Shown here one piece after another: positions 20,574 to 60,257 of a stretch of DNA of 64,000 nt. Source of the DNA: a virus; the IMG/VR virus record IMGVR_UViG_3300045988_162372. One strand, written 5' to 3'. The translations under genes were made by a program, and so were the position numbers. The stretch's first letter is position 1. Every line of letters begins with the position of its first letter. Below the pieces are notes generated by a model that saw only the letters and a list, made by a program, of their open reading frames with translations, had not been told where the DNA came from and did not search any database.

Positions 20574-20607
20574 GACTATTTATATCTATAAGAATAGATA
20601 TAAAAAG

Positions 20608-39790: not shown

Positions 39791-41122
39791 ATGAAATTTG
39801 TAGAATTATTTGATAACGATATGAAACCAAAGTGGGATATAATAGAAAACATCCCACAGTTTGCAGCACTTAAGACAACCAAGCAAAGCAATACTTGGCA
39901 TAAAGAGGGTGATGCTCTTAGGCATACACGGCTTGTTGTTGAAAATATGCAAAGAGAATTGGATGAACAGAATATTGACAATCATTCTGCATATTATCTT
40001 GTAATGATGTCTGCCGCACTTTGTCATGACTTAGGCAAGGCAACTTCAACCAAATGGGATAAAGAGAAGAATGACTATGTATGTAATCATCATGGACAAG
40101 CAGGTGAGAATATTACCCGTATGTTGTTTTATGATGAGAAATTTATCATAAGGGAACTTGTATGCTATATGGTACGTTGGCATATGAATTTACATCATAT
40201 CTTGGATGATGAGGAAAAAGTTGATGAGAAACTGATAAATATGGCTCACGGATGGGTATCAATTCAAGATATGTTACTTCTCAACAAATGTGATTCTCTT
40301 GGAAGCCAGAATGACATTGAAACAAGAGAATTCCTTGAGAACAGATGGGATACCATTAAGGAAAGAGCAGAGAAGTTGGATGTATTTGATATGGTCTATG
40401 ATGATTATAATACGAAACATATATGTGAAAATCTGAATACTGCCCTAAATGCATCTAATCCAATTGCTCCATTTTCATTTATGACACTAAATTGGAGGGA
40501 TGTGCGAGAGTCTTGTAGTAATATATTGAGGCATACTCCTATAAATTGGAAAACAAATAATATAAAGATATTAAATCAATTCACTGTCTTTATGATGGTA
40601 GGTATTCCTGGAAGTGGTAAAGATACTATTATACGAAAATACTTAAATGATATTCCAACTGTATGTAGAGATGATATCCGCACTGAAATAGGTATTCAAG
40701 GAGAGAAGCCTATGGGTAATAAAGAACAGGAGAAGAAAGTGACTCAAATATTCGAGGAAAGAATGTTGGAATATTGCAAACAAGGTAAGAGTTTTGTTAT
40801 TAATAATACAAACCTTAAAAAGCAATACCGTAACAGATTCTTGGATATCATAAAGCCTTATAAACCAGTCGTGATTTATATTTATGTGGAAGCTCCGTCA
40901 ATAGTTGATAATTTTGCAAGACGTGCTGGACAAATAGATAAGGATATAATACGCAGGATGGCTTCAAACTTTGATTTCCCTTATCCTACGGAATATACTA
41001 CTTTGTGGCTCGATATACAAGGTGAACCACAATTCACTGAAATATATGGTAACGCAATGATGAGTCATATAATTCAAGATATGATGCAACCAAGAAAGAA
41101 GAAAGATGAACAAGAACATTAA
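39791..41122 (+). CDS. HD-Pnk: HD phosphoesterase fused to P-loop polynucleotide 5'-kinase
   Basis: N-terminal H..(ALRHTRLV)..CHDLGKA..HHG HD domain; C-terminal MMVGIPGSGKDT Walker A, CRDDIR, NNTNL; same architecture as bacterial HD-Pnk end-healing enzymes. Confidence 0.8.
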   Translation: MKFVELFDNDMKPKWDIIENIPQFAALKTTKQSNTWHKEGDALRHTRLVVENMQRELDEQNIDNHSAYYLVMMSAALCHDLGKATSTKWDKEKNDYVCNHHGQAGENITRMLFYDEKFIIRELVCYMVRWHMNLHHILDDEEKVDEKLINMAHGWVSIQDMLLLNKCDSLGSQNDIETREFLENRWDTIKERAEKLDVFDMVYDDYNTKHICENLNTALNASNPIAPFSFMTLNWRDVRESCSNILRHTPINWKTNNIKILNQFTVFMMVGIPGSGKDTIIRKYLNDIPTVCRDDIRTEIGIQGEKPMGNKEQEKKVTQIFEERMLEYCKQGKSFVINNTNLKKQYRNRFLDIIKPYKPVVIYIYVEAPSIVDNFARRAGQIDKDIIRRMASNFDFPYPTEYTTLWLDIQGEPQFTEIYGNAMMSHIIQDMMQPRKKKDEQEH

Positions 41123-41369
41123 TCTATTTGGTGAGGACATCACTAAAGAAATCGAAGCAGAGGAAAGGAAACATAAATATTCAGAAAGGGCTAAGAAAGC
41201 GGCCGAAACAAGGAAAAGACATAAGGCTGAACAAGAAGCCCTTTTTGATAAAATGTTCACCATTGCGAGAAGTGAATGTGATTTATTTGGTAATAAATAT
41301 ACCGACGAGGAAAGAAAAGAAGCTGAGAAATATATTAGGGAAAACTTTAAAAAAAGAAATAAGAAATGA
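41106..41369 (+). CDS. hypothetical Lys/Glu-rich protein
   Basis: 87-aa ORF. Confidence 0.5.
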   Translation: MNKNINLFGEDITKEIEAEERKHKYSERAKKAAETRKRHKAEQEALFDKMFTIARSECDLFGNKYTDEERKEAEKYIRENFKKRNKK

Positions 41370-41785
41370 TAGTATCAGAAGAATTTTTGCTTGAGAAATT
41401 AAAAGGATACAAACAGAAAACTTGGTCAGGACATTGGACTAACAAGGGAAACATCCACTTTATTTTGTGGAATTTGTTAGGAATATTCAACGGACATTAT
41501 AATGTGGTTGTTAATCCAGAAACCTTTGAATATCGAGTTAAAAAGCATAGTGAATATGGTAATCTTGTTTCATACCTACCAACACAAGAAACAACCGTTT
41601 GGACAAAAGAAAATATGTCACAAGAACAAATAGATTATATTGAGCCTTGTATTGCCAAAACTTTGTATGATTTGCTATACCCTTCGATTTTTTCTTATAA
41701 TACAAAAGAAGGTTATTCCCAATGGTTATCCAATCTTCTTGTGGATGATGATACGTTTGAATTTACCTGGAAATGGCGAGAATAA
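41366..41785 (+). CDS. hypothetical protein
   Basis: 139-aa ORF, ATGA overlap. Confidence 0.55.
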   Translation: MIVSEEFLLEKLKGYKQKTWSGHWTNKGNIHFILWNLLGIFNGHYNVVVNPETFEYRVKKHSEYGNLVSYLPTQETTVWTKENMSQEQIDYIEPCIAKTLYDLLYPSIFSYNTKEGYSQWLSNLLVDDDTFEFTWKWRE

Positions 41786-41802
41786 ATTAAAAAATATAAA
41801 AT

Positions 41803-42489
41803 ATGGAATATACTCTTGAAACAAGTTCAGAAACTTTTATTAATAAAATAAAAAAATTTCTTCATTATGGAAACATAATGATAGATTTGGAAACATTGTC
41901 TACCAGAACCAATGCATCCATAATAAGCGTTGCTGCCGTAGAATTTGGATTAAATGGTGATACTGGCAGGGAAATGATATTAAAAATCAAACCATCAGAA
42001 TGGGGAAAATATGATAGACATATTGATGGTAATACAATCGCATGGTGGATGGGACAAGATGCAGAGGCTGTTAAAAACCTTTTTGCAAAGGACGGGGAAG
42101 ATTTCACGTTGCTTGATGCCTTATCTCATTTGTCTGATTTTGTAAAAGAATGTGATATGCCTATACCAATTACGCAAGAACAAGAAATGACTGCCAGTTT
42201 TATGAGCAGTTTCAGATACAGTGATGTAAAAGACAAAAGGATTAAAGTATGGGGAAATGGTTCTACAATGGATATTACAATTCTTCAATCTGCTTATGAG
42301 TATTTCAATATGCAGATACCGTGGCAATATTGGGCTGTAAATGATGTGCGTACTATTGTGGATTTAAACCCTGAAATTAAAAAGAACTGTACTTTTGAAG
42401 GTGTGAAACATAATCCTATTGACGATTGTAATTATCAGATTAAATATATGACTGAAACAATTAAAAATATTAGAGAAAATAGATATTAA
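41803..42489 (+). CDS. DEDDh 3'-5' exonuclease (Rv2179c-like exoribonuclease type)
   Basis: MIDLETLS (DxE), WGNGSTMDITIL (D), HNPIDDCNYQ (H-x4-D). Confidence 0.75.
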   Translation: MEYTLETSSETFINKIKKFLHYGNIMIDLETLSTRTNASIISVAAVEFGLNGDTGREMILKIKPSEWGKYDRHIDGNTIAWWMGQDAEAVKNLFAKDGEDFTLLDALSHLSDFVKECDMPIPITQEQEMTASFMSSFRYSDVKDKRIKVWGNGSTMDITILQSAYEYFNMQIPWQYWAVNDVRTIVDLNPEIKKNCTFEGVKHNPIDDCNYQIKYMTETIKNIRENRY

Positions 42490-42545
42490 TTTTTTTTACA
42501 AAAATTATATGTTGAAAATATTTTCGCATTAAAAAATTTAAAAAT

Positions 42546-42983
42546 ATGGCACTTTTGAAACTTATAGTTTATGCATTGTTAATTTGTACTGGGGTAATAG
42601 GGTTAATTTGCTTCGGATACTATTTATTATTCATCTTAAAAACTAATTTCGCAGAAACAAGAAAATATTTGGATCAATTTCCTGATAAATTTAAAAATTA
42701 TACTGATGAATATCATTCTTATTGTAATGGTGATATTCTAATACACTTATATGATAATAGGGATACAAAACGTTTGTACAATAGATATACAGTTACGATT
42801 GAATATAATTTATTGGGTTACATTATATATAATGATGCTATTAATATAATACGAGTACCGTATCCGTTTTTCAAAAAGGAAAGAAAGTGGCTTAATAATT
42901 TATTTAGACAAAAATATGAAAGAGTTAAAAAGCAAGAGATGAAAGAAATGAACAAATTAATAGAAGTAATGAAAAATAATTAG
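42546..42983 (+). CDS. membrane-anchored protein
   Basis: 145 aa, N-terminal helix. Confidence 0.55.
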   Translation: MALLKLIVYALLICTGVIGLICFGYYLLFILKTNFAETRKYLDQFPDKFKNYTDEYHSYCNGDILIHLYDNRDTKRLYNRYTVTIEYNLLGYIIYNDAINIIRVPYPFFKKERKWLNNLFRQKYERVKKQEMKEMNKLIEVMKNN

Positions 42984-42987
42984 AAAT

Positions 42988-43215
42988 ATGGAAAAGAAAG
43001 AACTAAACGAACACAATGAGTGTTATTATTGCAAACTCATGTACCGTATTCCTGGTGATGCGCATATTGGTTGTAAGAAGTTTTGTGAAGGTAATAAATT
43101 TAATGCACATGGCATTAGATGTGGATGGGTCGTAATTATGCCGATGCTTGACCTTTGCAATTTTGATCCTGTGTGGAAAGAAACCATGTGTCCGAATTTT
43201 GAAGAAAATAAATAA
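42988..43215 (+). CDS. hypothetical Cys-rich protein
   Basis: 75-aa ORF with seven Cys. Confidence 0.5.
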   Translation: MEKKELNEHNECYYCKLMYRIPGDAHIGCKKFCEGNKFNAHGIRCGWVVIMPMLDLCNFDPVWKETMCPNFEENK

Positions 43216-43235
43216 AACATTAAAATCATACAAAC

Positions 43236-43826
43236 ATGAAAAAGTTAAAAGAATGTTATAATTTGTATATTAACGAATGTATTGATAAAGATGCACTTAA
43301 AAGTCTGAATGAAGATATTATCAAGTATACAACGGAGATTGAGGAGATTTTATGTGAAAATGAGAATGAATTAAGAAGTTGTGGATATCCTATTCCAGAT
43401 AGAAATAATGTCACTAAACCTATTTTCTATCTTCACATAAATACTTTTGGCGGTTCTGTATATGACGGTCTTGGAATATACAACATCATCAGGAAATTGT
43501 CAGAAGATTATAAAGTCATCGCCTATTGTCGTGGCTATATCATGTCTATGGGTATTCCTATTATCCTTGCTGCGACAGAACGTTATTCATACCCTGATAC
43601 CACGTTTATGATACATGAAATAAGTAGTTTCTATTGGGGGAAATTGACTGAGGCAAAAGAAAACCTGCAAGAAATTGAACGTCTAAACAAAGCTATATGT
43701 GATATTATTGTTAGACACACTTCAATTACACAAGATATGTTGGATGATTGGTATAAACATAAGAAAGATGTGTTTATGTCGGCACAACAAGCACTTGATT
43801 ATAAGTTGATTGATAAAATACTCTAA
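43236..43826 (+). CDS. clpP: ClpP-like serine protease (S14)
   Basis: HINTFGGSVYDGLGIYNII, GYIMSMGIPIILAA (Ser), TFMIHE (His). Confidence 0.75.
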   Translation: MKKLKECYNLYINECIDKDALKSLNEDIIKYTTEIEEILCENENELRSCGYPIPDRNNVTKPIFYLHINTFGGSVYDGLGIYNIIRKLSEDYKVIAYCRGYIMSMGIPIILAATERYSYPDTTFMIHEISSFYWGKLTEAKENLQEIERLNKAICDIIVRHTSITQDMLDDWYKHKKDVFMSAQQALDYKLIDKIL

Positions 43827-43854
43827 TCAGTTATATTTTTTTAACGAAATATAT

Positions 43855-43885
43855 TTTGGTATAATTCTCTAATGTTGTACATTTG
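43855..43885 (+). promoter_or_regulatory. Bacteroidota-type promoter (-33/-7)
   Basis: TTTG-N19-TACATTTG upstream of ATG 43922. Confidence 0.6.
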
Positions 43886-43921
43886 CAATGTGAATAATAA
43901 AATACATATTGTAAATTAAAA

Positions 43922-44161
43922 ATGGAAAACAATGTTAGAGAATTTTTGGTATTGGAAGGTTATACAAATGATTTGTTGATGATAAATTCTTCAGGCTCAA
44001 TGAAAATGACAAGACTTATCAAGCTTGACCCAAACAATAAAGAATTGGATGAAGAAATTGTGGATATTGCTGTTACATCAACAAATGAATATGGAACGCA
44101 TCCGTTATTTGATGAGTTGCTTGGAAAGAAAATAAGATTAAAGGTAGAAATTTTGAAATAA
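43922..44161 (+). CDS. hypothetical protein
   Basis: 79-aa ORF after promoter. Confidence 0.5.
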   Translation: MENNVREFLVLEGYTNDLLMINSSGSMKMTRLIKLDPNNKELDEEIVDIAVTSTNEYGTHPLFDELLGKKIRLKVEILK

Positions 44162-44176
44162 TAAAAAGAGAATTGA

Positions 44177-45043
44177 ATGGCAATAAACCTTTTAAAAATT
44201 AACGCAGAAGCCGTACTATGTACGGGTGATTTGCATGGAAACCTGAATAGCATTGGATACCAGATTAAACAGTTTGGTATCCAAAATTCAGTTCTGATAT
44301 GTTGTGGGGATATTGGATTAGGCTTTAATAAGTTGGAATATTATAAACAATACTTGAATAAGTTGAAGAAGGTATTGACCAAATATAATGATTATGTCAT
44401 TCTTCTTAGGGGTAATCATGATGATAAGGCGTATTTCGACAATAAGCTCATTAATGATAAAAGGATTAAGGCGGTTTCTGATTATACAATAGTGCAGGTA
44501 TATCCTATGGATGATACAGAATGCCTTTCTCTTCCATACAATGTGTTATGTGTCGGTGGAGCTACCTCAATTGACAGAATGCACAGAATTAGTGTAAACA
44601 ACAAACTGTTGATGGAATATTCCAAACATCATAATATGGAAACTTTGGAGGAAGCAAAAAAGAATTGTCTGAAATGTTATTGGGAAGACGAAGCACCTGT
44701 ATATGATGAAGAGACACTGAATGAGATTAAGGAACAAGGAATTACCATTGATGCTGTAACAACACATACTTGTCCATCTTTCTGTCAACCATTGACTAAG
44801 GATGGCATTCGATATTGGATGCAGTTTGACACTAATCTTGAAAAAGATATTGACAATGAACGCAACGTGATGGATAAACTTTATGATAAGTTGATAGAGG
44901 ATAAACACCCATTATCTGTATGGTGTTATGGCCATTATCATTATCATCATAATGACAGTATTAATGGAATAAGATATTACCTCCTTGATATGGAGAGAAA
45001 TGGAAAGATGGATATAATAACGATATATAAAAGTGGAAAATAA
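44177..45043 (+). CDS. calcineurin-like metallophosphoesterase (lambda-PPase-like)
   Basis: CTGDLHGN, CCGDIGLGF, LRGNHDD, GHYHYHH. Confidence 0.8.
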   Translation: MAINLLKINAEAVLCTGDLHGNLNSIGYQIKQFGIQNSVLICCGDIGLGFNKLEYYKQYLNKLKKVLTKYNDYVILLRGNHDDKAYFDNKLINDKRIKAVSDYTIVQVYPMDDTECLSLPYNVLCVGGATSIDRMHRISVNNKLLMEYSKHHNMETLEEAKKNCLKCYWEDEAPVYDEETLNEIKEQGITIDAVTTHTCPSFCQPLTKDGIRYWMQFDTNLEKDIDNERNVMDKLYDKLIEDKHPLSVWCYGHYHYHHNDSINGIRYYLLDMERNGKMDIITIYKSGK

Positions 45044-45347
45044 GATAGATTATAAAGAACAAATATTTCAGTTAAAGCATTTGCATCAACAAACAGGACA
45101 AGTAATTGATAAAATGTCGTTGTTGGAAATAGATGCAGAACATATGTATGCAAGAAACATTCTTTATCTATTATTTTCAATAATGAGGAAGAATTTGAAT
45201 ACATTGGATGAGTTTTTGCAAATACTAAATGACATAGAACATGAACAAGAGGAAGGACATAAACTTATCAAACGAATATACTCTAAAACTTGGTTCGCAA
45301 ATTCTTCTGGGATAGAAATTTCAAATGATAACGAGACAAAAACTTAA
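45033..45347 (+). CDS. hypothetical protein (GTG start uncertain)
   Basis: 104-aa ORF; alternative ATG at 45114. Confidence 0.4.
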   Translation: MENKIDYKEQIFQLKHLHQQTGQVIDKMSLLEIDAEHMYARNILYLLFSIMRKNLNTLDEFLQILNDIEHEQEEGHKLIKRIYSKTWFANSSGIEISNDNETKT

Positions 45348-45353
45348 TATATA

Positions 45354-45887
45354 ATGAAAGGAATAATTGCAATAAAAAATATATCGGATGTAATCACAAA
45401 TTCTTCAAGCGAAGTGTTTATGTTACAAACTGATGGTGTCATTAAAGGTATTAAAAATAACATTGAAAAATATCACAATGAACATATGTGGTATCACAAC
45501 GATTTTTCTGAACTTCCTGATGATATTAAACAGCTATTAGGCGGTGAGGATATTTTAAATGAAGCGGAAAAAATGCTCAATGAATCTTCTGGCGAAGGTG
45601 GAGAAATTAACATTTATGATTGGGAGGACGCATATAACGGATATTGCAAAATATACAAAAAACATTCCAAGAGTTTCACACCCGAACAGTGGGCAAAAAA
45701 AATTGATATACCATTGGAAGAATTGAAGAAAATCATTGTGGTTGATGTGGATTGGGCAGCTAAAAGTACTATCTCCATGTTAAAAGAACGTTATAATGTT
45801 GTCTTTGAAGGAGATATTTATTACGAATCAAAATATAGTGATGCCTTTGCGTATGCTTCCTATGCTAACGGAGAAAACTATCTATAA
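45354..45887 (+). CDS. ITNSSSE-motif family protein, copy 1
   Basis: N-terminus MKGIIAIKNISDVITNSSSEVFML; C-terminal IIVVDVDW. Confidence 0.6.
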   Translation: MKGIIAIKNISDVITNSSSEVFMLQTDGVIKGIKNNIEKYHNEHMWYHNDFSELPDDIKQLLGGEDILNEAEKMLNESSGEGGEINIYDWEDAYNGYCKIYKKHSKSFTPEQWAKKIDIPLEELKKIIVVDVDWAAKSTISMLKERYNVVFEGDIYYESKYSDAFAYASYANGENYL

Positions 45888-45896
45888 CAAAAATTT

Positions 45897-46580
45897 TTGA
45901 ATATGAAACACTACGATTCTATTCCAAGTATCAAAGAGGACAAATCTTTGGTCGGAGAAAATATTTTTGCTTTTAATAAATTGGACGGACAAAACTTCTG
46001 TGCAAAATATTCTCCAAAAGTGAATGAATTTACAATGTTTGGCAGTAGAACACAAAATGTGGATGAAACTTCCGAACAATTCGGAGATGCTGTTAGATAT
46101 TTCAAAGCTAACTTGGAGACACCGTTGAAAGAAGTTATTAAAAATAACAAAGGGAAAAATCAAATCTTTCATGGTATTGAAGAGATAACATTTTTCTTTG
46201 AATGGTATGGTGAGCATAGTTTTGCTGGTTTTCATCAGCCTAATGAAACATTAAAACTTGCATTAATAGATGTTTTTTTGAAAAAGAAAGGTTATATTGA
46301 GCCTAAAATATTTGTTGATATATTCTATGATAATCCATCAATAGAAACACCATTATTGGTATATAGTGGAAAATTGACAAATGATTTCATAAAGGCAATT
46401 CAAGAAAATGACTATACAGAAGCAAATTGTAACTTAAATGAGGTAAAAGAAGGCGTTGTCTGCAAACGTTCAACACTTCTGAAAGGGCAAAGACTTCCAA
46501 TGGTAAAGATTAAAACACAATGGTGGCTTGATAAATTGCATAGCACATTCTCAGAAGAACAATGCAAGAAATTAGAATAA
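45897..46580 (+). CDS. Rnl2-like RNA ligase nucleotidyltransferase
   Basis: motif I FNKLDGQN, III FFFEWYGEHSFAG, IV LALIDVF, V EGVVCK, then VKIKT. Confidence 0.7.
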   Translation: MNMKHYDSIPSIKEDKSLVGENIFAFNKLDGQNFCAKYSPKVNEFTMFGSRTQNVDETSEQFGDAVRYFKANLETPLKEVIKNNKGKNQIFHGIEEITFFFEWYGEHSFAGFHQPNETLKLALIDVFLKKKGYIEPKIFVDIFYDNPSIETPLLVYSGKLTNDFIKAIQENDYTEANCNLNEVKEGVVCKRSTLLKGQRLPMVKIKTQWWLDKLHSTFSEEQCKKLE

Positions 46581-46622
46581 GATAATAAAAAGGATTTATT
46601 AACAATTAAAATTGAATATAAT

Positions 46623-48167
46623 ATGACAAAAGAAATTTTCACGCTGTCAGAAAATGCGAAACTGGAATATTCTTGTACAGTAGTTCAAATTGGGGAAGTA
46701 AAACCTGTTGAAGGTTCAGACTTTCTTGGTTCAACACTAGTAAATGGTAATCCTATAGTTGTGCGCAAAGACCAAATCAAGGAGGGTGATATAATGATAT
46801 ATGCCCCTATTGAAACTGTGCTTAACAAACAATTTCTCTCTGTAAACAACCTATTTGAAATTGGAGAAAAAGAACTGAATTCAAATTTTAAGGAAGTTCA
46901 AGCACTTATCAATGAGGGAAAGAAAGAAGATGCTAAGAAAAAGGTGGGCTTCTTTAATAAGCATGGTCGTGTGAAGCTTATCCGCTTGCGTGGGTGTCCG
47001 TCTATGGGTTTCCTTATTGAAAAGGAGTCACTTGTAAAGTGGAAACCTAAGTTGCAGGACGTTGATTTCTCTCAATACGTGGATAAGGACTTTGATACCA
47101 TTGATGGGGAACTCTTTGTCAAGGTATATGTGCCTTATGTACCACCTATAAGAACAAGGGATAAATCAGCAAAACGAGACAAGAAATTAAAAAGATTTTC
47201 AAGACTTATTGAAGGTGAATTTAAGTTTCATTACGATACACAACAACTTGCTCGTAACATTCATCTGATTAAGCCAGATGATAAAGTGTTAATAACCAAC
47301 AAATTACATGGCACGAGCTTCATTTGCGCTAACATATTGACAAAGAAACCTGTTCAGCTTTCCAACATTCAAAAGCTCTTTAACAAGATGTCTAATAAAA
47401 AGATTAAGAAGTTAAAAAAGCAGAATGCTACTCACTATGCAGATAAGAAAAGATTGGAAAATCAAATCAAGCAGTATGAAAAGATTAAGAGACCTACATA
47501 TACTGTCGGATATGGTAATATCTATTCTTCTCATACTGTCATTAAAAATCAGTATATTAATAGTGGTGTAAATAGTGGCTTCTATGGAGTGGATATTTGG
47601 GGAGTATACGATAAGATTATGAAACCTTATATTCCACAAGGTATGACGTTGTATGGCGAAATCTGCGGTTATCTTGACGCTACTGGCAAGATGATACAGA
47701 AGGGTTACGACTATGGCTGCAAAGTAGGCGAAAATTTTTTGATGCCGTATCGTATCACCACTACAAAAGAAGACCATACTAAGAAGGAATGGACTGTGAA
47801 AGAGGTATATGATTGGACTGTCAAACTCTTGAAAGAACATCCTGAATTAAAAAAGAATGTAAGACCTATTACAATTCTTTACAGTGGTACATTAAAGGAC
47901 TTGTATCCAGAAATTAGTGTTTCTGATCATTGGCATGAGAATGTTCTTGAAACTATGAGAAATGATAAGGAACATTTCGGAATGGAAGAGCTTGAACCTG
48001 AATGTATCAATAAAGTTCCGAGAGAAGGAATTGTCTTGAGAATTATGGAAGACCCTGTGGCTGAGGCATTTAAGTTGAAGAGTTTCCGCTTTCTTGACAG
48101 AGAGAGGTCTGAAATGGACAAGGGACAAGTTGATATGGAAATGGCTGATGCCTACACTGAACAATAA
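46623..48167 (+). CDS. RNA ligase with N-terminal OB-like domain (Rnl5-like architecture)
   Basis: N-terminal VVQIGEVKPVEGSDFLGSTLVNGNPIVV (OB/tRNA-binding-like); motif I TNKLHGTSF, III TLYGEICGY, V EGIVLRI..FKLKS. Confidence 0.7.
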   Translation: MTKEIFTLSENAKLEYSCTVVQIGEVKPVEGSDFLGSTLVNGNPIVVRKDQIKEGDIMIYAPIETVLNKQFLSVNNLFEIGEKELNSNFKEVQALINEGKKEDAKKKVGFFNKHGRVKLIRLRGCPSMGFLIEKESLVKWKPKLQDVDFSQYVDKDFDTIDGELFVKVYVPYVPPIRTRDKSAKRDKKLKRFSRLIEGEFKFHYDTQQLARNIHLIKPDDKVLITNKLHGTSFICANILTKKPVQLSNIQKLFNKMSNKKIKKLKKQNATHYADKKRLENQIKQYEKIKRPTYTVGYGNIYSSHTVIKNQYINSGVNSGFYGVDIWGVYDKIMKPYIPQGMTLYGEICGYLDATGKMIQKGYDYGCKVGENFLMPYRITTTKEDHTKKEWTVKEVYDWTVKLLKEHPELKKNVRPITILYSGTLKDLYPEISVSDHWHENVLETMRNDKEHFGMEELEPECINKVPREGIVLRIMEDPVAEAFKLKSFRFLDRERSEMDKGQVDMEMADAYTEQ

Positions 48168-52205: not shown

Positions 52206-53189
52206 ATGGCAAAGAAAATCAGCAAGGACAAATGGGTAGGTCTAAAAATGAGAAACCTCCCCGATTATAATTACAGTGCGATTTGGAGCAATCTGGTTAC
52301 AATCCGTCTTGACAAAGGCGAGGTAATGGAACTTCCACCTGACCAGAGCGAATTCTATGATGTCTCTCTTGGTAACAAATGTACCACTGGAAAATGTAAT
52401 TTTTGTTATGTGGCAGCAAATCCAAATGGAAAATACTATGAGGATATTTGCGAAACTTGGAAAAAGTGGATGTCATTGTATCCAGATAAGTATGATGATA
52501 AAGGTAATTTACTAACTATCAAACCTTTACAAATAGCAATAGGAAGTGAGGGAGAGCCTTTGGAACATCCAAATATATGTGATTTCCTCAAAACGGTATA
52601 CGAAACGGATGTTGTTCCTAACTACACAACTAATGGTGTGATTCTTTCATATTGGGATAAGCCTGAAAGCAAGTATTATCAAAAAGCAAATGATATCCTT
52701 GCTGTAACATCTCTTTATGTTGGCGGTGTTGCGGTCAGCTTTGGAAACAAGGCACTTCGTCAATATGCAAAGAACGCTATTGAAGGATTGCTTGCAAAAG
52801 GTAATTGTCATGTTATGATACATCATATCATTTCGACAATGGAAAGTGTGGATGAATTTGTTGAATGTTGGAAAGAATATGGCGACAAGATTAAAAATCA
52901 TGTATTGCTTCCATTGATGCCTTCTGGTAGAAGCAAAAAAGGTATTGATGACGGCGTGTTTGAATATCTTGAGAAGGTTGTAAAGGAGAATAATATAGGT
53001 AATGTTGCCTTTGGTGCGCACTTTATCAAGTATCTTGAAAAATCAGACAAGATTAAGACATGGCTTTATCCTGCTGAGAGTTATTCAAAAAACGTAATCC
53101 TTACAAAAGACTGTGTACAGATTACACCAAGTTCATTTGATTTGAAACCTATCAAAAAGATTGATTTAAGTAATATTAATTTAAAATAA
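52206..53189 (+). CDS. radical-SAM-like enzyme with Cx4Cx2C cluster motif
   Basis: GNKCTTGKCNFCYVA, IGSEGEPLEHP (GGE-like), NYTTNG. Confidence 0.65.
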   Translation: MAKKISKDKWVGLKMRNLPDYNYSAIWSNLVTIRLDKGEVMELPPDQSEFYDVSLGNKCTTGKCNFCYVAANPNGKYYEDICETWKKWMSLYPDKYDDKGNLLTIKPLQIAIGSEGEPLEHPNICDFLKTVYETDVVPNYTTNGVILSYWDKPESKYYQKANDILAVTSLYVGGVAVSFGNKALRQYAKNAIEGLLAKGNCHVMIHHIISTMESVDEFVECWKEYGDKIKNHVLLPLMPSGRSKKGIDDGVFEYLEKVVKENNIGNVAFGAHFIKYLEKSDKIKTWLYPAESYSKNVILTKDCVQITPSSFDLKPIKKIDLSNINLK

Positions 53190-53190
53190 A

Positions 53191-53445
53191 ATGATAAATA
53201 TTAAACGATTTTTATGTCATCATAAATATGATTATATTATATGCGAAGATGTCATTGCTAATATTGAAAATGACAATGATGATTTAGAAGATGAATCACT
53301 TTATATGGCAATTGTATATTGTCCGAAATGTGGAAAAATATTTCTAAAAACAAGGATTTTCAATAATATGTTATCTGGCATTGACAAAATAAGAGAATTT
53401 CAAAGAATTACTAAGAAAAGTATTAAAAAAATAACAGTTAAGTAA
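53191..53445 (+). CDS. small zinc-ribbon-like protein
   Basis: 84 aa; CHH..C...CPKCG. Confidence 0.5.
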   Translation: MINIKRFLCHHKYDYIICEDVIANIENDNDDLEDESLYMAIVYCPKCGKIFLKTRIFNNMLSGIDKIREFQRITKKSIKKITVK

Positions 53446-53448
53446 AAT

Positions 53449-53961
53449 ATGACACAAATTATTAAAAATACAGAGCTAATCACCTCATTAATTAAACAAG
53501 TAATCGAACACGAAGGTACTGGTGATAAGATATATAATTATTATGCTAATGTTTGCCGCTTAGTACCAGATAAAGTAATAATGGTAGATGACTTTACCGA
53601 ATTATTATATCCTATTTATTATCAAAAAGTTGCTGATGATTTGAATTTGCATAATAAAAAATGTTTCATCAGCATCCCTATTACAGGTGTTGAAGAACAA
53701 GCAAGAGAAGAATGTAAAAAGGTGCAAAAACTATTCTCTGAATATTTGACAGATTGTGAAGTATTCTCACCATTTGAAGTTGCTCCTGAAAAGAATATGC
53801 CTGATTCCTATTATATGGGTAAAGATATTGAACAACTTATGAATTGTAATATTATGATACAAATGAACGGATGGGAAAATAGTAAAGGATGTAGAGTAGA
53901 GAATTTCGTTGCAGATACTTATAACATTGAAAAGATTCCTGTTGATAGTTTGTTTATTTAA
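53449..53961 (+). CDS. DUF4406 / nucleoside-deoxyribosyltransferase-like domain protein
   Basis: C-terminal half KKCFISIPITG...VFSPFE...MNCNIMIQMNGWENSKGCRVENFVA matches the DUF4406 pattern (..cD.v..l.gW..S.G...E...A). Confidence 0.55.
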   Translation: MTQIIKNTELITSLIKQVIEHEGTGDKIYNYYANVCRLVPDKVIMVDDFTELLYPIYYQKVADDLNLHNKKCFISIPITGVEEQAREECKKVQKLFSEYLTDCEVFSPFEVAPEKNMPDSYYMGKDIEQLMNCNIMIQMNGWENSKGCRVENFVADTYNIEKIPVDSLFI

Positions 53962-53990
53962 TCTAATAAGAAAATTATATTTCTACATTT

Positions 53991-54029
53991 AAAAAACAGA
54001 TACTTAAATCAGTATCTGTTTTTTTTTTT
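53991..54029 (+). terminator. rho-independent terminator
   Basis: AAAAAACAGATACT / AGTATCTGTTTTTT stem, loop TAAATC, T run extending to 54029. Confidence 0.75.
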
Positions 54030-54072
54030 AATATTTATATGAAGAAATAATATTTTTATAATTCTTTAAAAT

Positions 54073-55057
54073 ATGTGTTTAATTACTTCACAATTTAAAG
54101 CATATACACCTACAAGCGAGATAACGGCATATAAACTTGTCAAGAAAGCGACTAACAAGGAAAATATCTATTATTCTCCATTTCAAGGAGCTGTATATGA
54201 TTTTAATTCAAAAACTTCTCCCATACAATTATCAACTGGTAAAAAGAAAGAAACTGCTTCGACAAATCATGGTAATAAGAATTCATGGGGGGGGGTGGCT
54301 TCATGCTTTGCTTAATCCAAGCGAATACCCTTTATATCAAGACAAATATGTTATTCTAAGAGTAACAATACCCACATACCATGAAGATAATGATGGAAAT
54401 AGAATTGACACTGTTGTTTATATTTCAGACAATATGAATGAAATATGTACTAATAATATGAACATCTATAATGAAGTAATAGATATAAATTCTGCAAAGG
54501 TTAATTTATCAAGTGTTCCAATAAATTTTGAATTACCAGAAGGCATTAACATATCTTATAGTGGCAACAATATTAATCTTACTGTCAATTCACATAGCTA
54601 TACATTAGTAACAAGTTCTCCTAATTTTAATTCTTCTGTACAATGGGCAAAAGTTAAACCTGCTTCTGACATTATATCTGAATTTACTGATTTGCCTCAA
54701 TCCTACAAAGCAGCTAAACAATACTTCAATGGTAAAAATGATACCTCTATCATTAAACAGCTAGAAACAGAATACGAAAGGAAAAATAATAACAATATAT
54801 GTTATGAAGCAATAACAAAACTACAAGATGGGGAATATTTGCCTTCAATTGGCGAATTAAATGAGATAATTCAATATCAACATTACATTAACTACGAATT
54901 AAAACGTAATAACTCTGATAAACTTATCCAAAATGCTACATATTTTAGTAGCACACCATATTCGATTAATAATGTGTGGACTGTTAATGCAGAATATCTG
55001 ACGATATATAATTACTATTCAAGACAGAACAAATGTCTATTCTTACCTGTTAGATAA
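54073..55057 (+). pseudogene. DUF1566-domain gene (paralog of 2322..3362) split by a frameshift in a G9 tract
   Basis: 54073..54315 (MCLITSQ..) and 54137..55057 (..GGGWLHALLN.. YLPSIGELNEII..) each match successive parts of the 2322 protein; frames change inside G9 at 54287-54295. Confidence 0.7.
54287..54295 (+). repeat. G9 homopolymer (only G/C run longer than 5 that I saw)
   Basis: attcatGGGGGGGGGtggctt; G8 or G11 would restore one continuous reading frame. Confidence 0.9.
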
Positions 55058-55064
55058 TAATATA

Positions 55065-55096
55065 AATCCTACCAACATTTTGTAATTGGTAGGATT
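55065..55096. terminator. bidirectional terminator at the strand-switch point
   Basis: AATCCTACCAA / TTGGTAGGATT 11-bp stem between convergent genes ending at 55057 (+) and 55106 (-); T-rich on both sides. Confidence 0.7.
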
Positions 55097-55105
55097 ATTT
55101 CTTTT

Positions 55106-55996
55106 CTAAGAATTCCAAATGTCAAATGCTTGTATTATTTGTTCCTTGATATAAGGAAGTTTTATCTTTTCATATTCCCCATTATCTTTTAACCATATAA
55201 TACGCCTATCTATAACATCATAGCCCAAATTTTCAAGCATCATCGAATACAAACTAAGCTGAATGGTATAATGAGAGAGAGCTTCATCTATCATATCATC
55301 AAATGGTTGTAACATTGTAATGTTATTGTTACGATTGTAACTCTTTGATAATGAGGTATTTGTTTTAAAATCGGTCAAAATTATACTCCATTTATCTTTA
55401 TATTTATATGCTAATGTAGTATCTGCCGTACCACAGAATACTTCTCTAATACCAAATTTATTTCCTAATGGCATATACATCTTACATTCGGGAAGCAATG
55501 GATATATCTCTGGTATATTTAACAAATCTTGCCAATATTTCTGTATCGCATCTTGCTTTGGCCCATACGGTATCAAATAACCATCTTCGTATTGAGGCTT
55601 GATTACATCACATATTTCCTCCTCTTTTAAGTTTGTTATAAACCTTTGTAAGTTCTCCCCATAAAGATGTACACTTGATCCGTTGTTTGTTGCCTTAATA
55701 TTATTCTCGTGCCACATCCTTTGTACCTGTTCTTTTGTTGAATCATATTTAAGGGCATACCTCAATGCAATCTCATCCCAATCACTTTCAGGTTCATATC
55801 TTGCAATAATAGTAGATGCTGATGGTATCTTTTCAATAACAGTACCATCAGCGTTATGCAAATTGTATATATGTCCTTCTTCAATAAATTCCAGATTAGC
55901 AAAAGATGAAAGGATATGCTCTCTCATCTTTGTTACCTCTATTGGTTCTGGATTTTCCTTTAACCTTTTTTCTATATCACTTTTATGTATTAACAT
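55106..55996 (-). CDS. PD-(D/E)XK nuclease (RecB/Cas4-like fold, no Cys cluster)
   Basis: GHIYNL..PSASTII, GSSVH, CGTADTTL (D), ILTDFKT (D/E-x-K), YTIQLSLYSMM (QxxxY). Confidence 0.65.
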   Translation of the reverse strand: MLIHKSDIEKRLKENPEPIEVTKMREHILSSFANLEFIEEGHIYNLHNADGTVIEKIPSASTIIARYEPESDWDEIALRYALKYDSTKEQVQRMWHENNIKATNNGSSVHLYGENLQRFITNLKEEEICDVIKPQYEDGYLIPYGPKQDAIQKYWQDLLNIPEIYPLLPECKMYMPLGNKFGIREVFCGTADTTLAYKYKDKWSIILTDFKTNTSLSKSYNRNNNITMLQPFDDMIDEALSHYTIQLSLYSMMLENLGYDVIDRRIIWLKDNGEYEKIKLPYIKEQIIQAFDIWNS

Positions 55997-57563
55997 ATTT
56001 CTTTTTCAAATTAAAGTATTTATTCTTATCAAAATATGGCAGATATTCTTCATAGAAATCTTTACTTTTTGTAAACTGCCAATAAGGTTCAATGTCTTCT
56101 TCCTCATTATTGCTATTGTCTTTTGAAAATAACCAGGCAACAACAAAATTGTCTTTGGGAAGATTATTATCTATCGAAATTCCAATGTAACCACTCGGTG
56201 TTTGTCCTTGTATTCTGCAAGGCTTTTGCAAATCAATCTCTATTTTGATACAGTTCTCGTCATCATCACAAATAGTCATATGTTTACCAATCTGTTTTAC
56301 AGAAACAACACGAAATGGCAACGCTCCATTAGCTTTAAATGATGCGCAGTCATCATATTCAATAATATCATTTTTAGTGAGGATTTTCAATGTAGAAAGA
56401 AAATCATTAACAGCAATTATATGACCATACGGATCTATGATAGTATCATCACTATAACTGTATGTATTAAATCCGTTTACTTTAATTACGACACTATCAA
56501 TTGTTAAACCGTCATAACAGGTTGTAGTTATTTCGGAATTGGTTGTATATATGTCTGAAGCATCTCCACCAGTGAAAACAAAGAAATCGTGGGAATATAA
56601 TTCGTATAAGGCTTTCTGTAAATCATTCTTATCTTGTTTCTTCTCGCCATCTGTGCTATATGCTTTGTGATTTGTTTCCAATTGTTTCCAATCCATATTT
56701 GCAGGGAACAATTGTAATCCTGGTACATATTTTATACCAAGTTCCTTACAATCAGCCTTTGTAAGAGAGAATATTGTTGTATTATCTCCACCTATTTGTT
56801 TTACGATGACAGCATCTATCTCGATGTTATTCAGTTTGTCAATTTTCCCAACAACGACATAAGTCCTTTCAATGTTCTGAAAATCTTCTTCCCCTTGCAA
56901 TACAAGGGCATACTTATCCCCTCTATTGAATGATAATTGCGGAAGATAGTCTTGTTTCTTCGATGGTAACGACTTTATATTATTTTCATTTCCATCAATT
57001 TCTGCCATTAAAAAACTCTCATCATTAATAATGATGTCAGTTCTTTTGATAGAACACTTTTGTCTATTAATATATTTGTATGTCTGTACCTTTATTTCCA
57101 TACCATTACTATCAAAACCTAATATTTGATATGGCAACACTTCTCCTTTATAAAAGGAGGCATATCCATGTCCGTAATCAATATTATGGTGCGCTTTTAT
57201 TTTTAGGCAATGATATAAATCAAATAAAGGCATTAATTTACCGTTTGGTAGACATACAGTCTTTTCATCTATCTTTCTGATACCTTTGACCACGCCGAAA
57301 ATAAAACTTAGAGTACCATCAGAATTTCTATTGTGCATTGTACGACCGTGATCTATTTCCACTGTAATCTCGGAATATGGCGTATATATGTAATTTGTCA
57401 AATCTATCATTTGTGACGGATTAGAAGCGTTAAAATCAGCTATTGAATCTACTGGTATAGTTATTTTTGTATCATCCATATAACTGATTTCCACTGTTTG
57501 TTCAACCTCATTATAAGATGTGCTTTTTATCAATCTATCTATTTCATTAGAAATTGAGGGCAT
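55983..57563 (-). CDS. hypothetical protein (526 aa)
   Basis: longest ORF in the window; no motif recognised. Confidence 0.65.
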   Translation of the reverse strand: MPSISNEIDRLIKSTSYNEVEQTVEISYMDDTKITIPVDSIADFNASNPSQMIDLTNYIYTPYSEITVEIDHGRTMHNRNSDGTLSFIFGVVKGIRKIDEKTVCLPNGKLMPLFDLYHCLKIKAHHNIDYGHGYASFYKGEVLPYQILGFDSNGMEIKVQTYKYINRQKCSIKRTDIIINDESFLMAEIDGNENNIKSLPSKKQDYLPQLSFNRGDKYALVLQGEEDFQNIERTYVVVGKIDKLNNIEIDAVIVKQIGGDNTTIFSLTKADCKELGIKYVPGLQLFPANMDWKQLETNHKAYSTDGEKKQDKNDLQKALYELYSHDFFVFTGGDASDIYTTNSEITTTCYDGLTIDSVVIKVNGFNTYSYSDDTIIDPYGHIIAVNDFLSTLKILTKNDIIEYDDCASFKANGALPFRVVSVKQIGKHMTICDDDENCIKIEIDLQKPCRIQGQTPSGYIGISIDNNLPKDNFVVAWLFSKDNSNNEEEDIEPYWQFTKSKDFYEEYLPYFDKNKYFNLKKKYVNT

Positions 57564-57589: not shown

Positions 57590-58714
57590 TTATTTCACCA
57601 TTGCCGTCATTGCCGACTCAAGCTCTTTTTCAACCTTAATGATTTCTTCTTCCGTTGCTTTCCTATTTTTGGTTGCTTCCTCATGGATTGCTTGTACTTC
57701 TTTCAGCGTTTCGATGAGTCTTGCAGTAGTGGTACGCAGGGTTTCCACATCAACGACACTTCTTTCACTTTCTTTAGCAACATATATACTGTTTTGTTTC
57801 AAAAGTTCAGAATTCTTCAAAAGAATTTGATTAGTAGTATCACTGATTTTCTTCTGTGCATCAATGTTATTCTTCTGATTGTTCAACGCAACAGCAATTG
57901 ATAGCTGGTTTCTCCACACTGGAATTGTTGTGGAAATAATGCTTTGAGCTTTGTCTGCAACTGAAAGATTGTTATACTGTACAGTTCTAATCTGTGGAAG
58001 TGATTGTTTGATGACATATCTAAGTGTAAACATATCATTCAAACGCCTTTCAAGATTATTCTTGAACACTTGTGTATCTTGTATCTCAGTGGCAGTATAT
58101 TTGTCAGGATTCTGTTCCATATCTTGAATGGAACTTTCTAATTCTTCTACCTTTATCTTTCCTGCGATGATAAGTTCCTCAATCTGTTGACCATATAGAA
58201 TATTATTATCGAACATAACCTGCAAGGCATTATTATCACGTAAAGCAAGCATTCGCATTGCAGTAATCTTCTTGGATATTTCATCCACGTTCTGTGCAAT
58301 GCTGTCATATTTCTTCATTATCTTTTCAACTGATTTTACTAAATTCTTCAAAATAGGTATTCTACTGAGGAATTTCTTGATAGGTGATATATCCTCAAAA
58401 TCATCAAGCTCAACATAGCCAAGTTCAGTAAGTAAGTTGTCCACCAATGTGCCGATTTCTCCACACTTTGATGTCCTTACAGCATTCAAGAAATCATTGG
58501 AATACTTCGTCATAGAAGTCTGCAAATCAGAGCCAAAACTTGATACCGAGTTAATGTCTTTGACGACAAGACAAGAATTCAATCTGTTATATTTAGCTTT
58601 TTCCTCTTCTGTTAAGTTTGCAAGATTAATCTCTCCGTTCTCGCTTACTCTTTTTACCAATGCATTAGTAACTATTTTCTCTTTGTTTTCGATATTGTTG
58701 TTGTTATTTTCCAT
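57590..58714 (-). CDS. telA: TelA-like (toxic anion resistance family) protein
   Basis: 374 aa; SSFGSDLQTSMTKYSNDFLNAVRTSKCGEIGTLVDNLL and long coiled regions as in TelA/KlaA proteins. Confidence 0.7.
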   Translation of the reverse strand: MENNNNNIENKEKIVTNALVKRVSENGEINLANLTEEEKAKYNRLNSCLVVKDINSVSSFGSDLQTSMTKYSNDFLNAVRTSKCGEIGTLVDNLLTELGYVELDDFEDISPIKKFLSRIPILKNLVKSVEKIMKKYDSIAQNVDEISKKITAMRMLALRDNNALQVMFDNNILYGQQIEELIIAGKIKVEELESSIQDMEQNPDKYTATEIQDTQVFKNNLERRLNDMFTLRYVIKQSLPQIRTVQYNNLSVADKAQSIISTTIPVWRNQLSIAVALNNQKNNIDAQKKISDTTNQILLKNSELLKQNSIYVAKESERSVVDVETLRTTTARLIETLKEVQAIHEEATKNRKATEEEIIKVEKELESAMTAMVK

Positions 58715-58747
58715 ATTTATTCTAATTATGTTGTTAAATTAATAATA

Positions 58748-58783
58748 GGTAGGTATCTAATTGTTGCCAATCAAACACCTACC
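58748..58783 (-). terminator. terminator-like hairpin after ssb
   Basis: GGTAGGT / ACCTACC stem with 22-nt loop, U-rich (TATTATT) tail on the minus strand. Confidence 0.4.
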
Positions 58784-58828
58784 ATTGTCAAAAGATAAGA
58801 GAGATACATCGTTTGTTCTCAAATTGGT

Positions 58829-59347
58829 TTAGAATGGCAAATCATCATCGCTATCACCATTAACCAAAGGAATCTTCAAGCCTGAATTATCGACAACAGC
58901 TTGTTGCTCAGGTGTCAACATCTTAGTCTGTGTTTTTGGAATTTCCACTTCACTTGTTTGCTTTGAAGCGGATACTGGTGCTGCTTGTGATGTTTGATTT
59001 CCGTTTCCATCATTATTCCTATTGCTTGACTCTGAGAAATAAATCATTTCTGCACGGATATTTCTTCCAACCTCACAATTACCAGTGATTTTATTAGGAT
59101 AAACATTATCTGAATATTCCCCGATCACATTAATAGGTCTTCCCTTAGTCAGATACTTCTGAATGTTCATACCTTGTGTTGTAAAACAAGTTACTGAAAA
59201 CCAATAAGTGATAGGATTTCCTTGTTCATCCTTTGCATCACCAAACTCGTTATTTGCCATACGGAAGTGAATGTATTCCCTTCCCGATTGTGTAGTTTTC
59301 TTAACAGCGTCAGAAACAACTCTTCCGCTGAGTGTCATAATTCTCAT
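58829..59347 (-). CDS. ssb: single-stranded DNA-binding protein
   Basis: N-terminal OB-fold pattern (LSGRVVSDAV..., WFSVTCF) and canonical acidic tip DDDLPF. Confidence 0.9.
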   Translation of the reverse strand: MRIMTLSGRVVSDAVKKTTQSGREYIHFRMANNEFGDAKDEQGNPITYWFSVTCFTTQGMNIQKYLTKGRPINVIGEYSDNVYPNKITGNCEVGRNIRAEMIYFSESSNRNNDGNGNQTSQAAPVSASKQTSEVEIPKTQTKMLTPEQQAVVDNSGLKIPLVNGDSDDDLPF

Positions 59348-59405
59348 TTCTTTTTATTCTTTTTAAATTGTTCAACAATATGTTTTCCTTTATGTTTTCT
59401 CGATG

Positions 59406-59413
59406 CAAATATA
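59406..59413 (-). promoter_or_regulatory. -7 box TATATTTG on minus strand
   Basis: 58 nt upstream of ssb ATG; -33 region reads TTTT rather than TTTG. Confidence 0.5.
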
Positions 59414-59459
59414 CTACTTTTTCTCGAAATATAAAACTGTTTAATGGTTTTTAACATTG

Positions 59460-60257
59460 TTATTTTCTGATTATATCCAATAGCTTTTCCCTGTTATATT
59501 CGTCATTCAATACAAAAGCATCATGCTCAGTCCATATATTCCTTATATATGTCAAGTTCAATTCTTCATTGACTTGTCTAACTTCTTCCTTGTATATAAA
59601 ACGTCCATATTTCTTCCCATCTGAAAAATCAGTATTCCAGTCAATACCTTTCTTTTCTTTTAGAAGTGCAATCTGTTCATCAGTATTCAAATTGAGAAGT
59701 TCTTTATGGGAAAGATATGTTTGTGCTGCCTGTTGTTTTGAATTTTTAATGCAGTCATTCTGTCTATAGAGACACCACGCAAACATATCGTTTTCGTTTG
59801 GTACATTCCAAGCCTTGCAATCAAATTCAACAAGTTTCTGGCCTTCTACCATCTGTATCATATCACTTTGTGAACAAGGCGTATTCAATAAATCCATTGT
59901 TACCATATGATTGAACTTTGATGCTGCCATAGCTGCTGCGATTGACTGCAATTTGCATAAGCGATATCCGAAGAACGTATCAGTTGTTGGTGTGTCAAAA
60001 TCAGATAATGCCATAGTAATTTCATCTGATTGCACATACGCAAATTTGCATCCGCCAATATTCTTGCAAAGATACTTGGCGGTTTCATTCATATAATGAA
60101 TAAACTTGTTATCAAATGGTTTTTCATACTTATTTTTAATCAATTTTGAGAATGCTCTTCCGTCAAGCATCATTATTACATACTGATTAGGCACAAGCCT
60201 ATAATCTGACAAACTCCTATAATATAAACATTTATCTTCTAGATTCTTAAAATTCAT
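59460..60257 (-). CDS. Thg1-like protein (tRNA-His guanylyltransferase family, 3'-5' polymerase)
   Basis: YVIMMLDGRAFSKL, KPFD, AYVQSDEITMAL match the Thg1/TLP palm motifs. Confidence 0.8.
   Translation of the reverse strand: MNFKNLEDKCLYYRSLSDYRLVPNQYVIMMLDGRAFSKLIKNKYEKPFDNKFIHYMNETAKYLCKNIGGCKFAYVQSDEITMALSDFDTPTTDTFFGYRLCKLQSIAAAMAASKFNHMVTMDLLNTPCSQSDMIQMVEGQKLVEFDCKAWNVPNENDMFAWCLYRQNDCIKNSKQQAAQTYLSHKELLNLNTDEQIALLKEKKGIDWNTDFSDGKKYGRFIYKEEVRQVNEELNLTYIRNIWTEHDAFVLNDEYNREKLLDIIRK

Follow-up and report, generated by a model that had tools for sequence, protein, structure and literature searches.

The 64,000-nucleotide (nt) stretch of viral DNA analyzed here (IMG/VR virus record IMGVR_UViG_3300045988_162372; hereafter the window) carries, at positions 54073–55057, a gene whose reading frame is broken inside a run of nine G, and slippage at this poly-G tract most probably switches the frame of the gene in the manner of a contingency locus. 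The tract and its effect on the frame are read directly from the DNA; among close relatives the tract differs in length on identical backgrounds, and the out-of-frame copies carry no other lesions. Because in-frame and out-of-frame lengths interleave on the same haplotypes and the out-of-frame copies lack second lesions, we infer that the changes are reversible, as we infer replication slippage to be their cause.

Under this model, slipped-strand mispairing during phage DNA replication would add or remove G residues. Lengths of 8, 11 and 14 would give full-length products of 327–329 amino acids (aa) that differ in glycine number only (ON), lengths of 9 and 12 a stub of 80 or 81 aa, and lengths of 10 and 13 a stub of 95 or 96 aa (OFF); the window, at G9, would be in the OFF state. 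Through switching, some of the progeny would produce an accessory protein and others would not, the protein being helpful in some hosts and harmful in others. An adaptive bet-hedging role of this kind is plausible but unproven. The relevant features of the window are the following.

54287–54295, plus strand: poly-G tract, G9 (GGGGGGGGG), at which the gene is out of frame (OFF)
54073–54315, plus strand: 5′ part of the gene in the G9 state, with an 80-aa product and a stop seven codons past the tract
54296–55057, plus strand: 3′ continuation in the +1 frame, 253 codons plus stop, from TGG at 54296 to the stop at 55055–55057
54269–54287, plus strand: two ATGs just 5′ of the tract, where gene callers start open reading frames (ORFs) of 262/263 aa and 257/258 aa
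2322–3362, plus strand: intact paralog of 346 aa with the same two-part architecture, from alignment to the repaired protein

Frame translation bears out the preliminary description of this DNA, which had placed the break inside the G9 run and a stop seven codons further on. The tract forms codons 72–74 of the gene. When its length is changed in silico, G8 and G11 give continuous products of 327 and 328 aa, the restoration that the preliminary description had anticipated, G9 and G12 give 80 and 81 aa, and G7 and G10 give 94 and 95 aa. As in contingency loci, the homopolymer lies inside the coding sequence of a single gene, and its repeat number toggles that gene between an intact frame (G8, G11 and G14) and truncated ones (the other lengths). 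The 80-aa product ends halfway through the N-terminal domain, so that Cys2 is included and His77 is not; the 3′ continuation encodes the rest of this domain (G-x-x-His77 and Cys125), a beta-rich middle and a C-terminal region resembling Lcl_C/DUF1566.

The two halves are parts of one gene, because the protein obtained by repairing the frame aligns over its full length with the paralog and with 27 full-length orthologs. The alignment to the paralog runs end to end (20% identity, E = 2e-10), in agreement with the earlier statement that the halves match consecutive parts of it; the equivalent glycines of the paralog are encoded by GGT GGA (2538–2543), without a homopolymer. The window has a G+C content of 31.3%. 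Within it, no G or C run other than G9 exceeds five, as had been noted before, and the runs of exactly five number three, all of them G5. Base composition predicts about 0.008 runs of nine G in the window.

We searched a protein collection with the repaired protein, fetched the DNA of 27 orthologous loci and read the tract in each. The 27 full-length orthologs, all from metagenomes, are 320–344 aa long and 82–97% identical to the repaired protein; several further ortholog clusters comprise the C-terminal 78% only, beginning MVIRIHGGGGWLH. At the tract, full-length orthologs read NSWGGW, NSWGGGW, NSLGGW or NSLGGGW (the majority) or, where the tract is interrupted, NSLGAGW, NSLGEGW or NSLAGGW, and the more distant orthologs P0033 and P0034 (VGRGYFH and VGSGYFH) have no G run at all. 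The DNA itself reads as follows.

T+G8: loci L003–5, in frame
T+G9: the window and L030–34, out of frame
T+G10: L017–19, out of frame
T+G11: L013, in frame
T+G12: L001–2, out of frame
T+G13: L021–22, out of frame
T+G14: L020, in frame
TTGGGGGGAGGG (interrupted): L006–10, in frame
TTGGGTGGTGGG (interrupted): L011–12, in frame at the tract
TTGGGGGGGAGGG: L014, out of frame, +1 in the G6 sub-run

Each of the seven lengths from G8 to G14 was thereby confirmed at the DNA level among the orthologs. The products are also diagnostic of length: the members of four clusters include proteins of 327 aa (G8), 328 aa (G11) and 329 aa (G14) together with OFF pairs of 80+262 aa (G9), 81+263 aa (G12) and 95+257 aa (G10), as well as a 258-aa product (G13). 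The preliminary description had suggested such a comparison of related genomes and had named a fixed G8, or a fixed G9 with accumulated downstream stops, as outcomes that would speak against switching. Neither is seen among the relatives, and the range of G8 to G14, with the same haplotype found both in and out of frame, supports slipped-strand ON/OFF switching, the first of the explanations it had listed.

The length differences occur on shared backgrounds. Eight different 253-aa downstream sequences each recur unchanged with two or three tract lengths, among them P0043 (G9), P0042 (G10) and P0074 (G11); P0055 (G9), P0068 (G11) and P0058 (G13); and P0056 (G10), P0072 (G11) and P0061 (G12). 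When sequences at most 2 aa apart are grouped into haplotypes, nine groups have more than one member and eight of them are mixed in tract length, one spanning G8–G11; the ninth consists of a G12 sequence (P0029) and an interrupted-tract sequence (P0010). Outside the tract, two loci from the same assembly series, L017 (G10) and L021 (G13), have 5 differences in 972 nt. Between near-identical genomes, then, tract length changes at a pace far above that of point substitution.

A different reading is that the tract of this genome is truly G8 or G11, the gene is simply intact and the G9 of the window is an error of sequencing or assembly; long homopolymers are prone to sequencing errors. Where separate samples contain an identical haplotype, they give the same length (three times for G8, three times for G10 and twice for G13), and the exact 80-aa G9 product of the window recurs on 18 contigs from several data sets, 14 of which are at least 50 kb long. 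Five of these 18 contigs were fetched; all have G9, on three different 3′ haplotypes. Because replicate samples agree and the G9 product recurs in this way, the length calls are reproducible rather than random assembly noise, and its presence on 18 independent contigs makes a one-off sequencing error in the window very unlikely. The homopolymer error that the preliminary description had listed as a third possibility is, on these grounds, highly improbable. In different assemblies, three contigs have their first base exactly at the tract or 8 nt upstream of it (L015 and L016, positions 1–20; L022, positions 1–15). These starts show that assemblers have trouble at the run; they hint at mixed lengths and are consistent with these or with poor coverage.

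Apart from the tract, the gene is preserved in its OFF copies. No second stop or frameshift was found in any of the 28 distinct out-of-frame sequences. The 213 nt 5′ of the tract and the 253 codons 3′ of it are open in every tract-bearing locus whose contig reaches them, and the 3′ continuation is open in all 17 tract-bearing loci with contig coverage to the stop codon. For this 3′ part, the ratio of nonsynonymous to synonymous substitution rates (dN/dS) among tract-bearing loci is 0.14–0.31 except for the closest pair, and pairs in which both members are OFF fall in the same range. Interrupted tracts served as a control: of the cluster representatives that have one, 26 keep the frame and 2 have lost it, L014 among them. 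Since the gene is almost always intact when the tract is interrupted, frame loss is tied to the long run.

An exception of another kind is seen in the lineage of L011 and L012, whose tract is fully interrupted: at a site orthologous to about window position 54760 (10690–10700 in L011), a 2-nt insertion at about codon 231 changes AAAGAGTTA to AAAGAGAGTTA. The new frame stays open over the 94 codons that are left, and the resulting 232-aa product occurs on four contigs. As these copies are broken despite an interrupted tract, loss of function is tolerated at times.

How often the gene is ON was estimated from the contigs listed, with at most 15 members per cluster, so the counts are rough figures: G8 was found in 4 contigs, G9 in 21, G10 in 29, G11 in 35, G12 in 18, G13 in 6 and G14 in 2. 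The distribution is a single hump at G10–G12 with no excess of in-frame lengths or of a period of three, and about two thirds of the sampled populations have an OFF consensus. By distinct sequence, 10 of 38 are in frame.

Several points weigh against the interpretation of the tract as a switch. By contig, 41 of 115 are in frame (36%), which does not differ from the one third expected in the absence of a frame preference (binomial p = 0.62), and there is no sign that the sampled populations favor ON. Other long A/T runs also vary in length between relatives, so length variation is a general property of long homopolymers here and does not prove that this tract is selected. The low dN/dS may for the most part be older than the tract, given a tract-bearing 5′ allele that hardly varies across divergent 3′ haplotypes. 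All the length evidence comes from assembled consensus sequences and is a comparison between assemblies. In addition, PDB, Foldseek, BFVD, PHROGs and Pfam failed to assign a function to the product, and the TnpB gene of the window, a tRNA search and Shine-Dalgarno use failed to assign a host.

Some of these points are what one would see if the tract were an incidental mutational hotspot in a dispensable gene, slipping without adaptive role and producing OFF copies that are neutral or mildly harmful dead ends in a gene heading towards loss. An in-frame share near one third is the value without selection on the frame; the single hump without period-three enrichment, the variable intergenic A/T runs and the independent inactivation of the L011/L012 lineage point the same way. 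Against this reading, 0 of the 28 distinct OFF sequences have a second lesion, the coding sequence is under purifying selection, and the motif at the tract (G74 and H77) is invariant or nearly so in the N-terminal domain family. Moreover, ON and OFF lengths alternate on identical haplotypes, and the uninterrupted tract persists on two 5′ alleles and many 3′ haplotypes without having been purged by interruption. We regard the hotspot explanation as unlikely. The counts per length fit a freely switching, intermittently selected locus and also a neutral hotspot in a dispensable gene, two readings that sequence data by themselves do not separate.

The open downstream frame of all OFF copies could also be accounted for by recoding, in which programmed ribosomal frameshifting, or slippage of RNA polymerase, at the G run would join the split frames into a full-length protein; both tRNA-Gly and a polymerase might plausibly slip on such a run. 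Programmed +1/−2 frameshifting had been among the possibilities raised initially. As the design of the locus it is not supported, because it requires a conserved frame relation and all three phases occur among the relatives, many of which are simply in frame. The more distant orthologs lack the tract altogether, and no stimulatory element (stop or rare codon, Shine-Dalgarno-like site upstream or structure downstream) was evident at the tract by eye, a reading made with no dedicated search for structure or covariation. Recoding as an explanation of the split frames is accordingly very hard to credit, and low-level leaky slippage of the ribosome or the polymerase on a long G run is possible.

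A variant of the frame switch would have three states, with the OFF phases yielding an N-terminally truncated protein of 257–263 aa from the ATG at 54269 or 54285, without Cys2 and the first five strands. Both OFF phases do have an ATG at most 18 nt upstream of the tract and in frame with the 3′ part: the ATG at 54269 is in frame at G9 or G12 and would give MVIRIHGGG(G)W..., and that at 54285 is in frame at G10 or G13 and would give MGGG(G)W.... The second of these arises from the same T-to-G change that lengthens the run, and the lack of a Shine-Dalgarno motif is no argument against initiation in a genome stretch where 6 of 53 genes have one. Against these points stand the structure and conservation of the domain, since truncation would cut through a confidently modeled single domain and remove the nearly invariant Cys2; the ATGs may also be due to chance. 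We consider such truncated isoforms quite improbable.

Returning to the frame switch itself, the relatives also suggest how the tract arose. The codons at this position form a series, TTG GGT GGT GGG, TTG GGG GGA GGG and TGG GGG GGG (GGG), in which synonymous changes and a Leu-to-Trp change fuse short G runs; slippage would then add or remove whole or partial glycine codons. GGG is the rarest glycine codon in the window (9%). The tract-bearing 5′ allele is nearly invariant (1–4 differences in 213 nt) and sits on 3′ haplotypes that diverge by up to 13%; some of these are nearer to interrupted-tract alleles than to each other, P0029 and P0010 differing by 1 aa, and L002 combines another 5′ allele with G12. 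The near-invariant 5′ allele on divergent 3′ haplotypes, together with the combination in L002, suggests recombination or repeated origin of the tract.

A more ambitious version of the switch is selected bet-hedging in a gut jumbo phage. The gene would encode a new effector combining an N-terminal Cys/His domain with a lectin-like part, useful on some hosts and exposing the phage to defense on others; recombination would have spread the 5′ allele onto many 3′ haplotypes by second-order selection, and OFF phases might also yield a truncated isoform from the ATGs beside the tract. We put this forward only tentatively, as a possibility that is rather less than likely.

The predicted protein has two parts, the N-terminal one being a domain of about 135 aa from an uncharacterized phage family. 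With a profile built on residues 1–143 we retrieved 149 relative clusters (50% clustering), nearly all starting at residue 1, in which the domain either stands alone (120–150 aa) or is followed by some 200 aa of C-terminal sequence. In the window the family spans 54073–54480 and 2322–2720; its relatives are P0083–P0230. The conserved residues are Met1-Cys2-Leu3, Lys21, Gly74, His77 and Cys125, within the motifs MCLxT, G[FWY][IL]HA, IPKGTxYY and EICA. The tract encodes Trp and the glycines up to the invariant Gly74, which precedes His77 by three residues. The model of the domain is a confident beta-rich fold (predicted local distance difference test, pLDDT, 85). No Pfam family matches it, a sequence-profile search of the PDB gave 0 matches, and Foldseek against the PDB, with both the full model and the confident N-terminal model, returned nothing below E = 0.04 and no TM-score above 0.22. 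Structural matches in BFVD are to uncharacterized phage proteins of 130–170 aa only, and PHROGs matches are to families of unknown function only. A Hint/intein-like or Ntn-hydrolase interpretation of the MCL...H pattern was considered and rejected, as there is no fold match.

For the C-terminal part, the DUF1566 label given in the preliminary description has sub-threshold matches behind it. The repaired protein (20.6 bits) and the paralog (23.7 bits) score below the gathering cut-off of 34.9 for Pfam Lcl_C/DUF1566 (PF07603), so the label is not supported for this protein; the orthologs P0033 and P0034 do have a precomputed PF07603 match. Among 50 relatives of the N-terminal domain, of which about 23 are long two-domain forms, 9 match PF07603 weakly. 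A relation of the C-terminal part to Lcl_C/DUF1566, a lectin-like domain, is likely. As to function, our guess would be an enzymatic or metal-binding Cys/His site coupled to a domain that binds a ligand. A template/variable repeat of a diversity-generating retroelement (DGR) serving the two paralogs was also considered and rejected: none was found in the window, and the paralogs share only a 45-nt stretch at 78% identity.

The gene is flanked by the following signals.

53991–54029, plus strand: terminator-like hairpin with a T11 tail, closing the upstream DUF4406 gene, from sequence
54034–54062, plus strand: promoter-like TTTATA-17 nt-TATAAT, its 3′ end 10 nt upstream of the ATG at 54073, a consensus match only
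55065–55096, no strand assigned: 12-pair terminator-like hairpin, separating the gene from the convergent minus-strand block, from sequence

The upstream hairpin and the −10 element are kept in all relatives that cover them. Because a terminator-like hairpin closes the DUF4406 gene, the poly-G gene is likely transcribed alone, as a monocistronic, stand-alone unit. Runs within these signals vary as well. The T-run of the upstream terminator (54019–54029) is T9–T12 across relatives and differs between loci with identical genes (T10 in L017, T12 in L018). The T-run in the promoter-like spacer (54049–54056) is T5–T7 in L001–L021, a range that would take the −35/−10 spacing from 17 up to 19 nt. Elsewhere in the window, A9 runs have A7 counterparts in relatives.

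Neighboring genes encode DUF4406, radical-SAM-like (a weak match), exonuclease-like, TelA, SSB, Thg1, RNA ligase and kinase/nucleotidyltransferase proteins. Judged by this company, the tract gene lies in a non-structural region, among nucleic-acid-metabolism and auxiliary genes and not in a tail module, and the PDB, BFVD and PHROGs searches gave no structural-protein match for its product; the receptor-binding role first proposed for it has no basis. An RNA-repair-like/auxiliary cluster occupies 39791–48167 and 57590–60257 (kinase/nucleotidyltransferase fusion, RNA ligase, TelA-like, SSB and Thg1-like); its RNA ligase is about 33% identical to Lak megaphage and cyanophage proteins.

The window also contains, inside the phage genome, an IS200/IS605-type TnpB (OrfB) of 406 aa (3875–5095, plus strand), and relatives have TnpB or resolvase plus TnpB copies at other positions. 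Among species-representative genomes its nearest matches are archaeal (Thermoplasmata, 37–48% identity), which is uninformative for the host. No tRNA genes were found in the 64-kb window. A Shine-Dalgarno-like motif precedes 6 of the 53 larger genes, a low use that would be a weak hint of a Bacteroidota-like host; stop codons are mostly TAA (43 of 53).

The relative L011 has a further run of interest, G11 on the plus strand at 19894–19904 and hence C11 on the coding strand (LPPPH), in an ORF for a D12-class DNA adenine methyltransferase (PF02086; 19634–20014, minus strand). The ORF stops after 126 aa and adjoins an IS607-like resolvase and TnpB pair. This may be a second phase-variable gene, found in the lineage whose DUF1566-gene tract is fully interrupted. 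The same relative also has a reverse-transcriptase gene (20208–20699).

Contigs of the relatives reach 357–364 kb, and one is part of NCBI assembly GCA_949300175.1; from these lengths, the carrier is a jumbo phage, with a genome of about 310–364 kb. Among 50,697 deposited phages none is closely related to it: megablast of 53000–56500 and tblastn of the repaired protein against these records gave no match. An IMG/VR protein scan and an exact flank pattern were both negative, the pattern also when applied to JGI metagenome contigs, and a GTDB genome scan with an ortholog turned up no relative.

Experimental demonstrations of homopolymer contingency loci in phages are limited to a few cultured ones. 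Public metagenomes provide a natural-population view of one such locus, with seven lengths on shared haplotypes, and the named samples form a ready test set for measuring switching at the read level in situ. They include the runs behind ERZ1314577, which matches the window exactly at this gene, SRR30861130, ERZ24773268, SRR29449369, ERR15003729, ERR10610430 and ERZ16268139/147. Switching also flags the accessory gene as conditionally useful, making it a candidate for a role in host interaction or anti-defense. For annotation, where G/C runs in phage assemblies split a gene call, it should be neither "corrected" nor recorded as a pseudogene.

Among known systems, the Fletchervirus phages of Campylobacter have poly-G runs of 7–11 in receptor-binding genes that create phenotypic diversity (Sorensen et al. 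2021 Cell Rep 35:109214, via 10.1101/2025.10.21.683753, PMC12823448 and PMC10877375). As far as these secondary accounts go, the present locus resembles them in having an intragenic poly-G tract of similar length (8–14 here) whose length changes shift the frame and would yield mixed progeny. It differs in that the Fletchervirus tracts lie in receptor-binding genes, several to a genome by the same accounts, whereas here the tract is in a gene of a non-structural region, not in a tail-fiber or receptor-binding gene, and is the only one in a 64-kb window of a genome of about 360 kb, one relative having a second run of 11 in its methyltransferase gene. The phage is also unrelated to those, as the lack of matches among deposited records indicates, and the evidence is population-genomic rather than experimental.

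The closest match in gene context is with T2 agt and T4 rIIA, in which reversible A-run frameshifts caused by polymerase slippage serve as bet-hedging against host defenses (Gomez, Barrick & Waters, bioRxiv 10.1101/2025.10.21.683753); there, as here, the homopolymer lies in a non-structural, conditionally useful phage gene. The A-runs of those genes are about 6–9 long, with mutant frequencies near 1e-3 and a population mostly in frame, unlike the G8–G14 range and the predominantly out-of-frame consensus found here. Poly-G runs are also reported in the BPP-1 methylase gene and in a PB1-like baseplate gene (10.1101/2025.10.21.683753). Bacterial poly-G/C phase variation is known from Campylobacter, Neisseria and Haemophilus (reviewed in PMC11868660 and PMC8355987). 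The present locus shares with these contingency loci a G run near the 5′ end, ON states at 3n+2 and a tract of rare GGG codons, but it is borne by a virus and its product is not a demonstrated surface structure. DUF1566/C-type-lectin domains are, in turn, DGR targets in phages, where they provide variable ligand binding (PMC5758913, PMC4159848). The likeness extends to the type of the C-terminal domain, by a sub-threshold Pfam match, and to the reverse-transcriptase gene of L011; unlike DGR targets, neither paralog has a template/variable repeat in the window, and the variation is an ON/OFF frameshift and not adenine mutagenesis.

The locus works like known phage and bacterial contingency loci, by a mechanism already known in a few other phages. 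It differs from them in its carrier, an uncultivated jumbo phage, in the non-structural two-domain protein that it affects, in the range of G8–G14 and in evidence that consists of natural polymorphism across many metagenomes rather than experiment.

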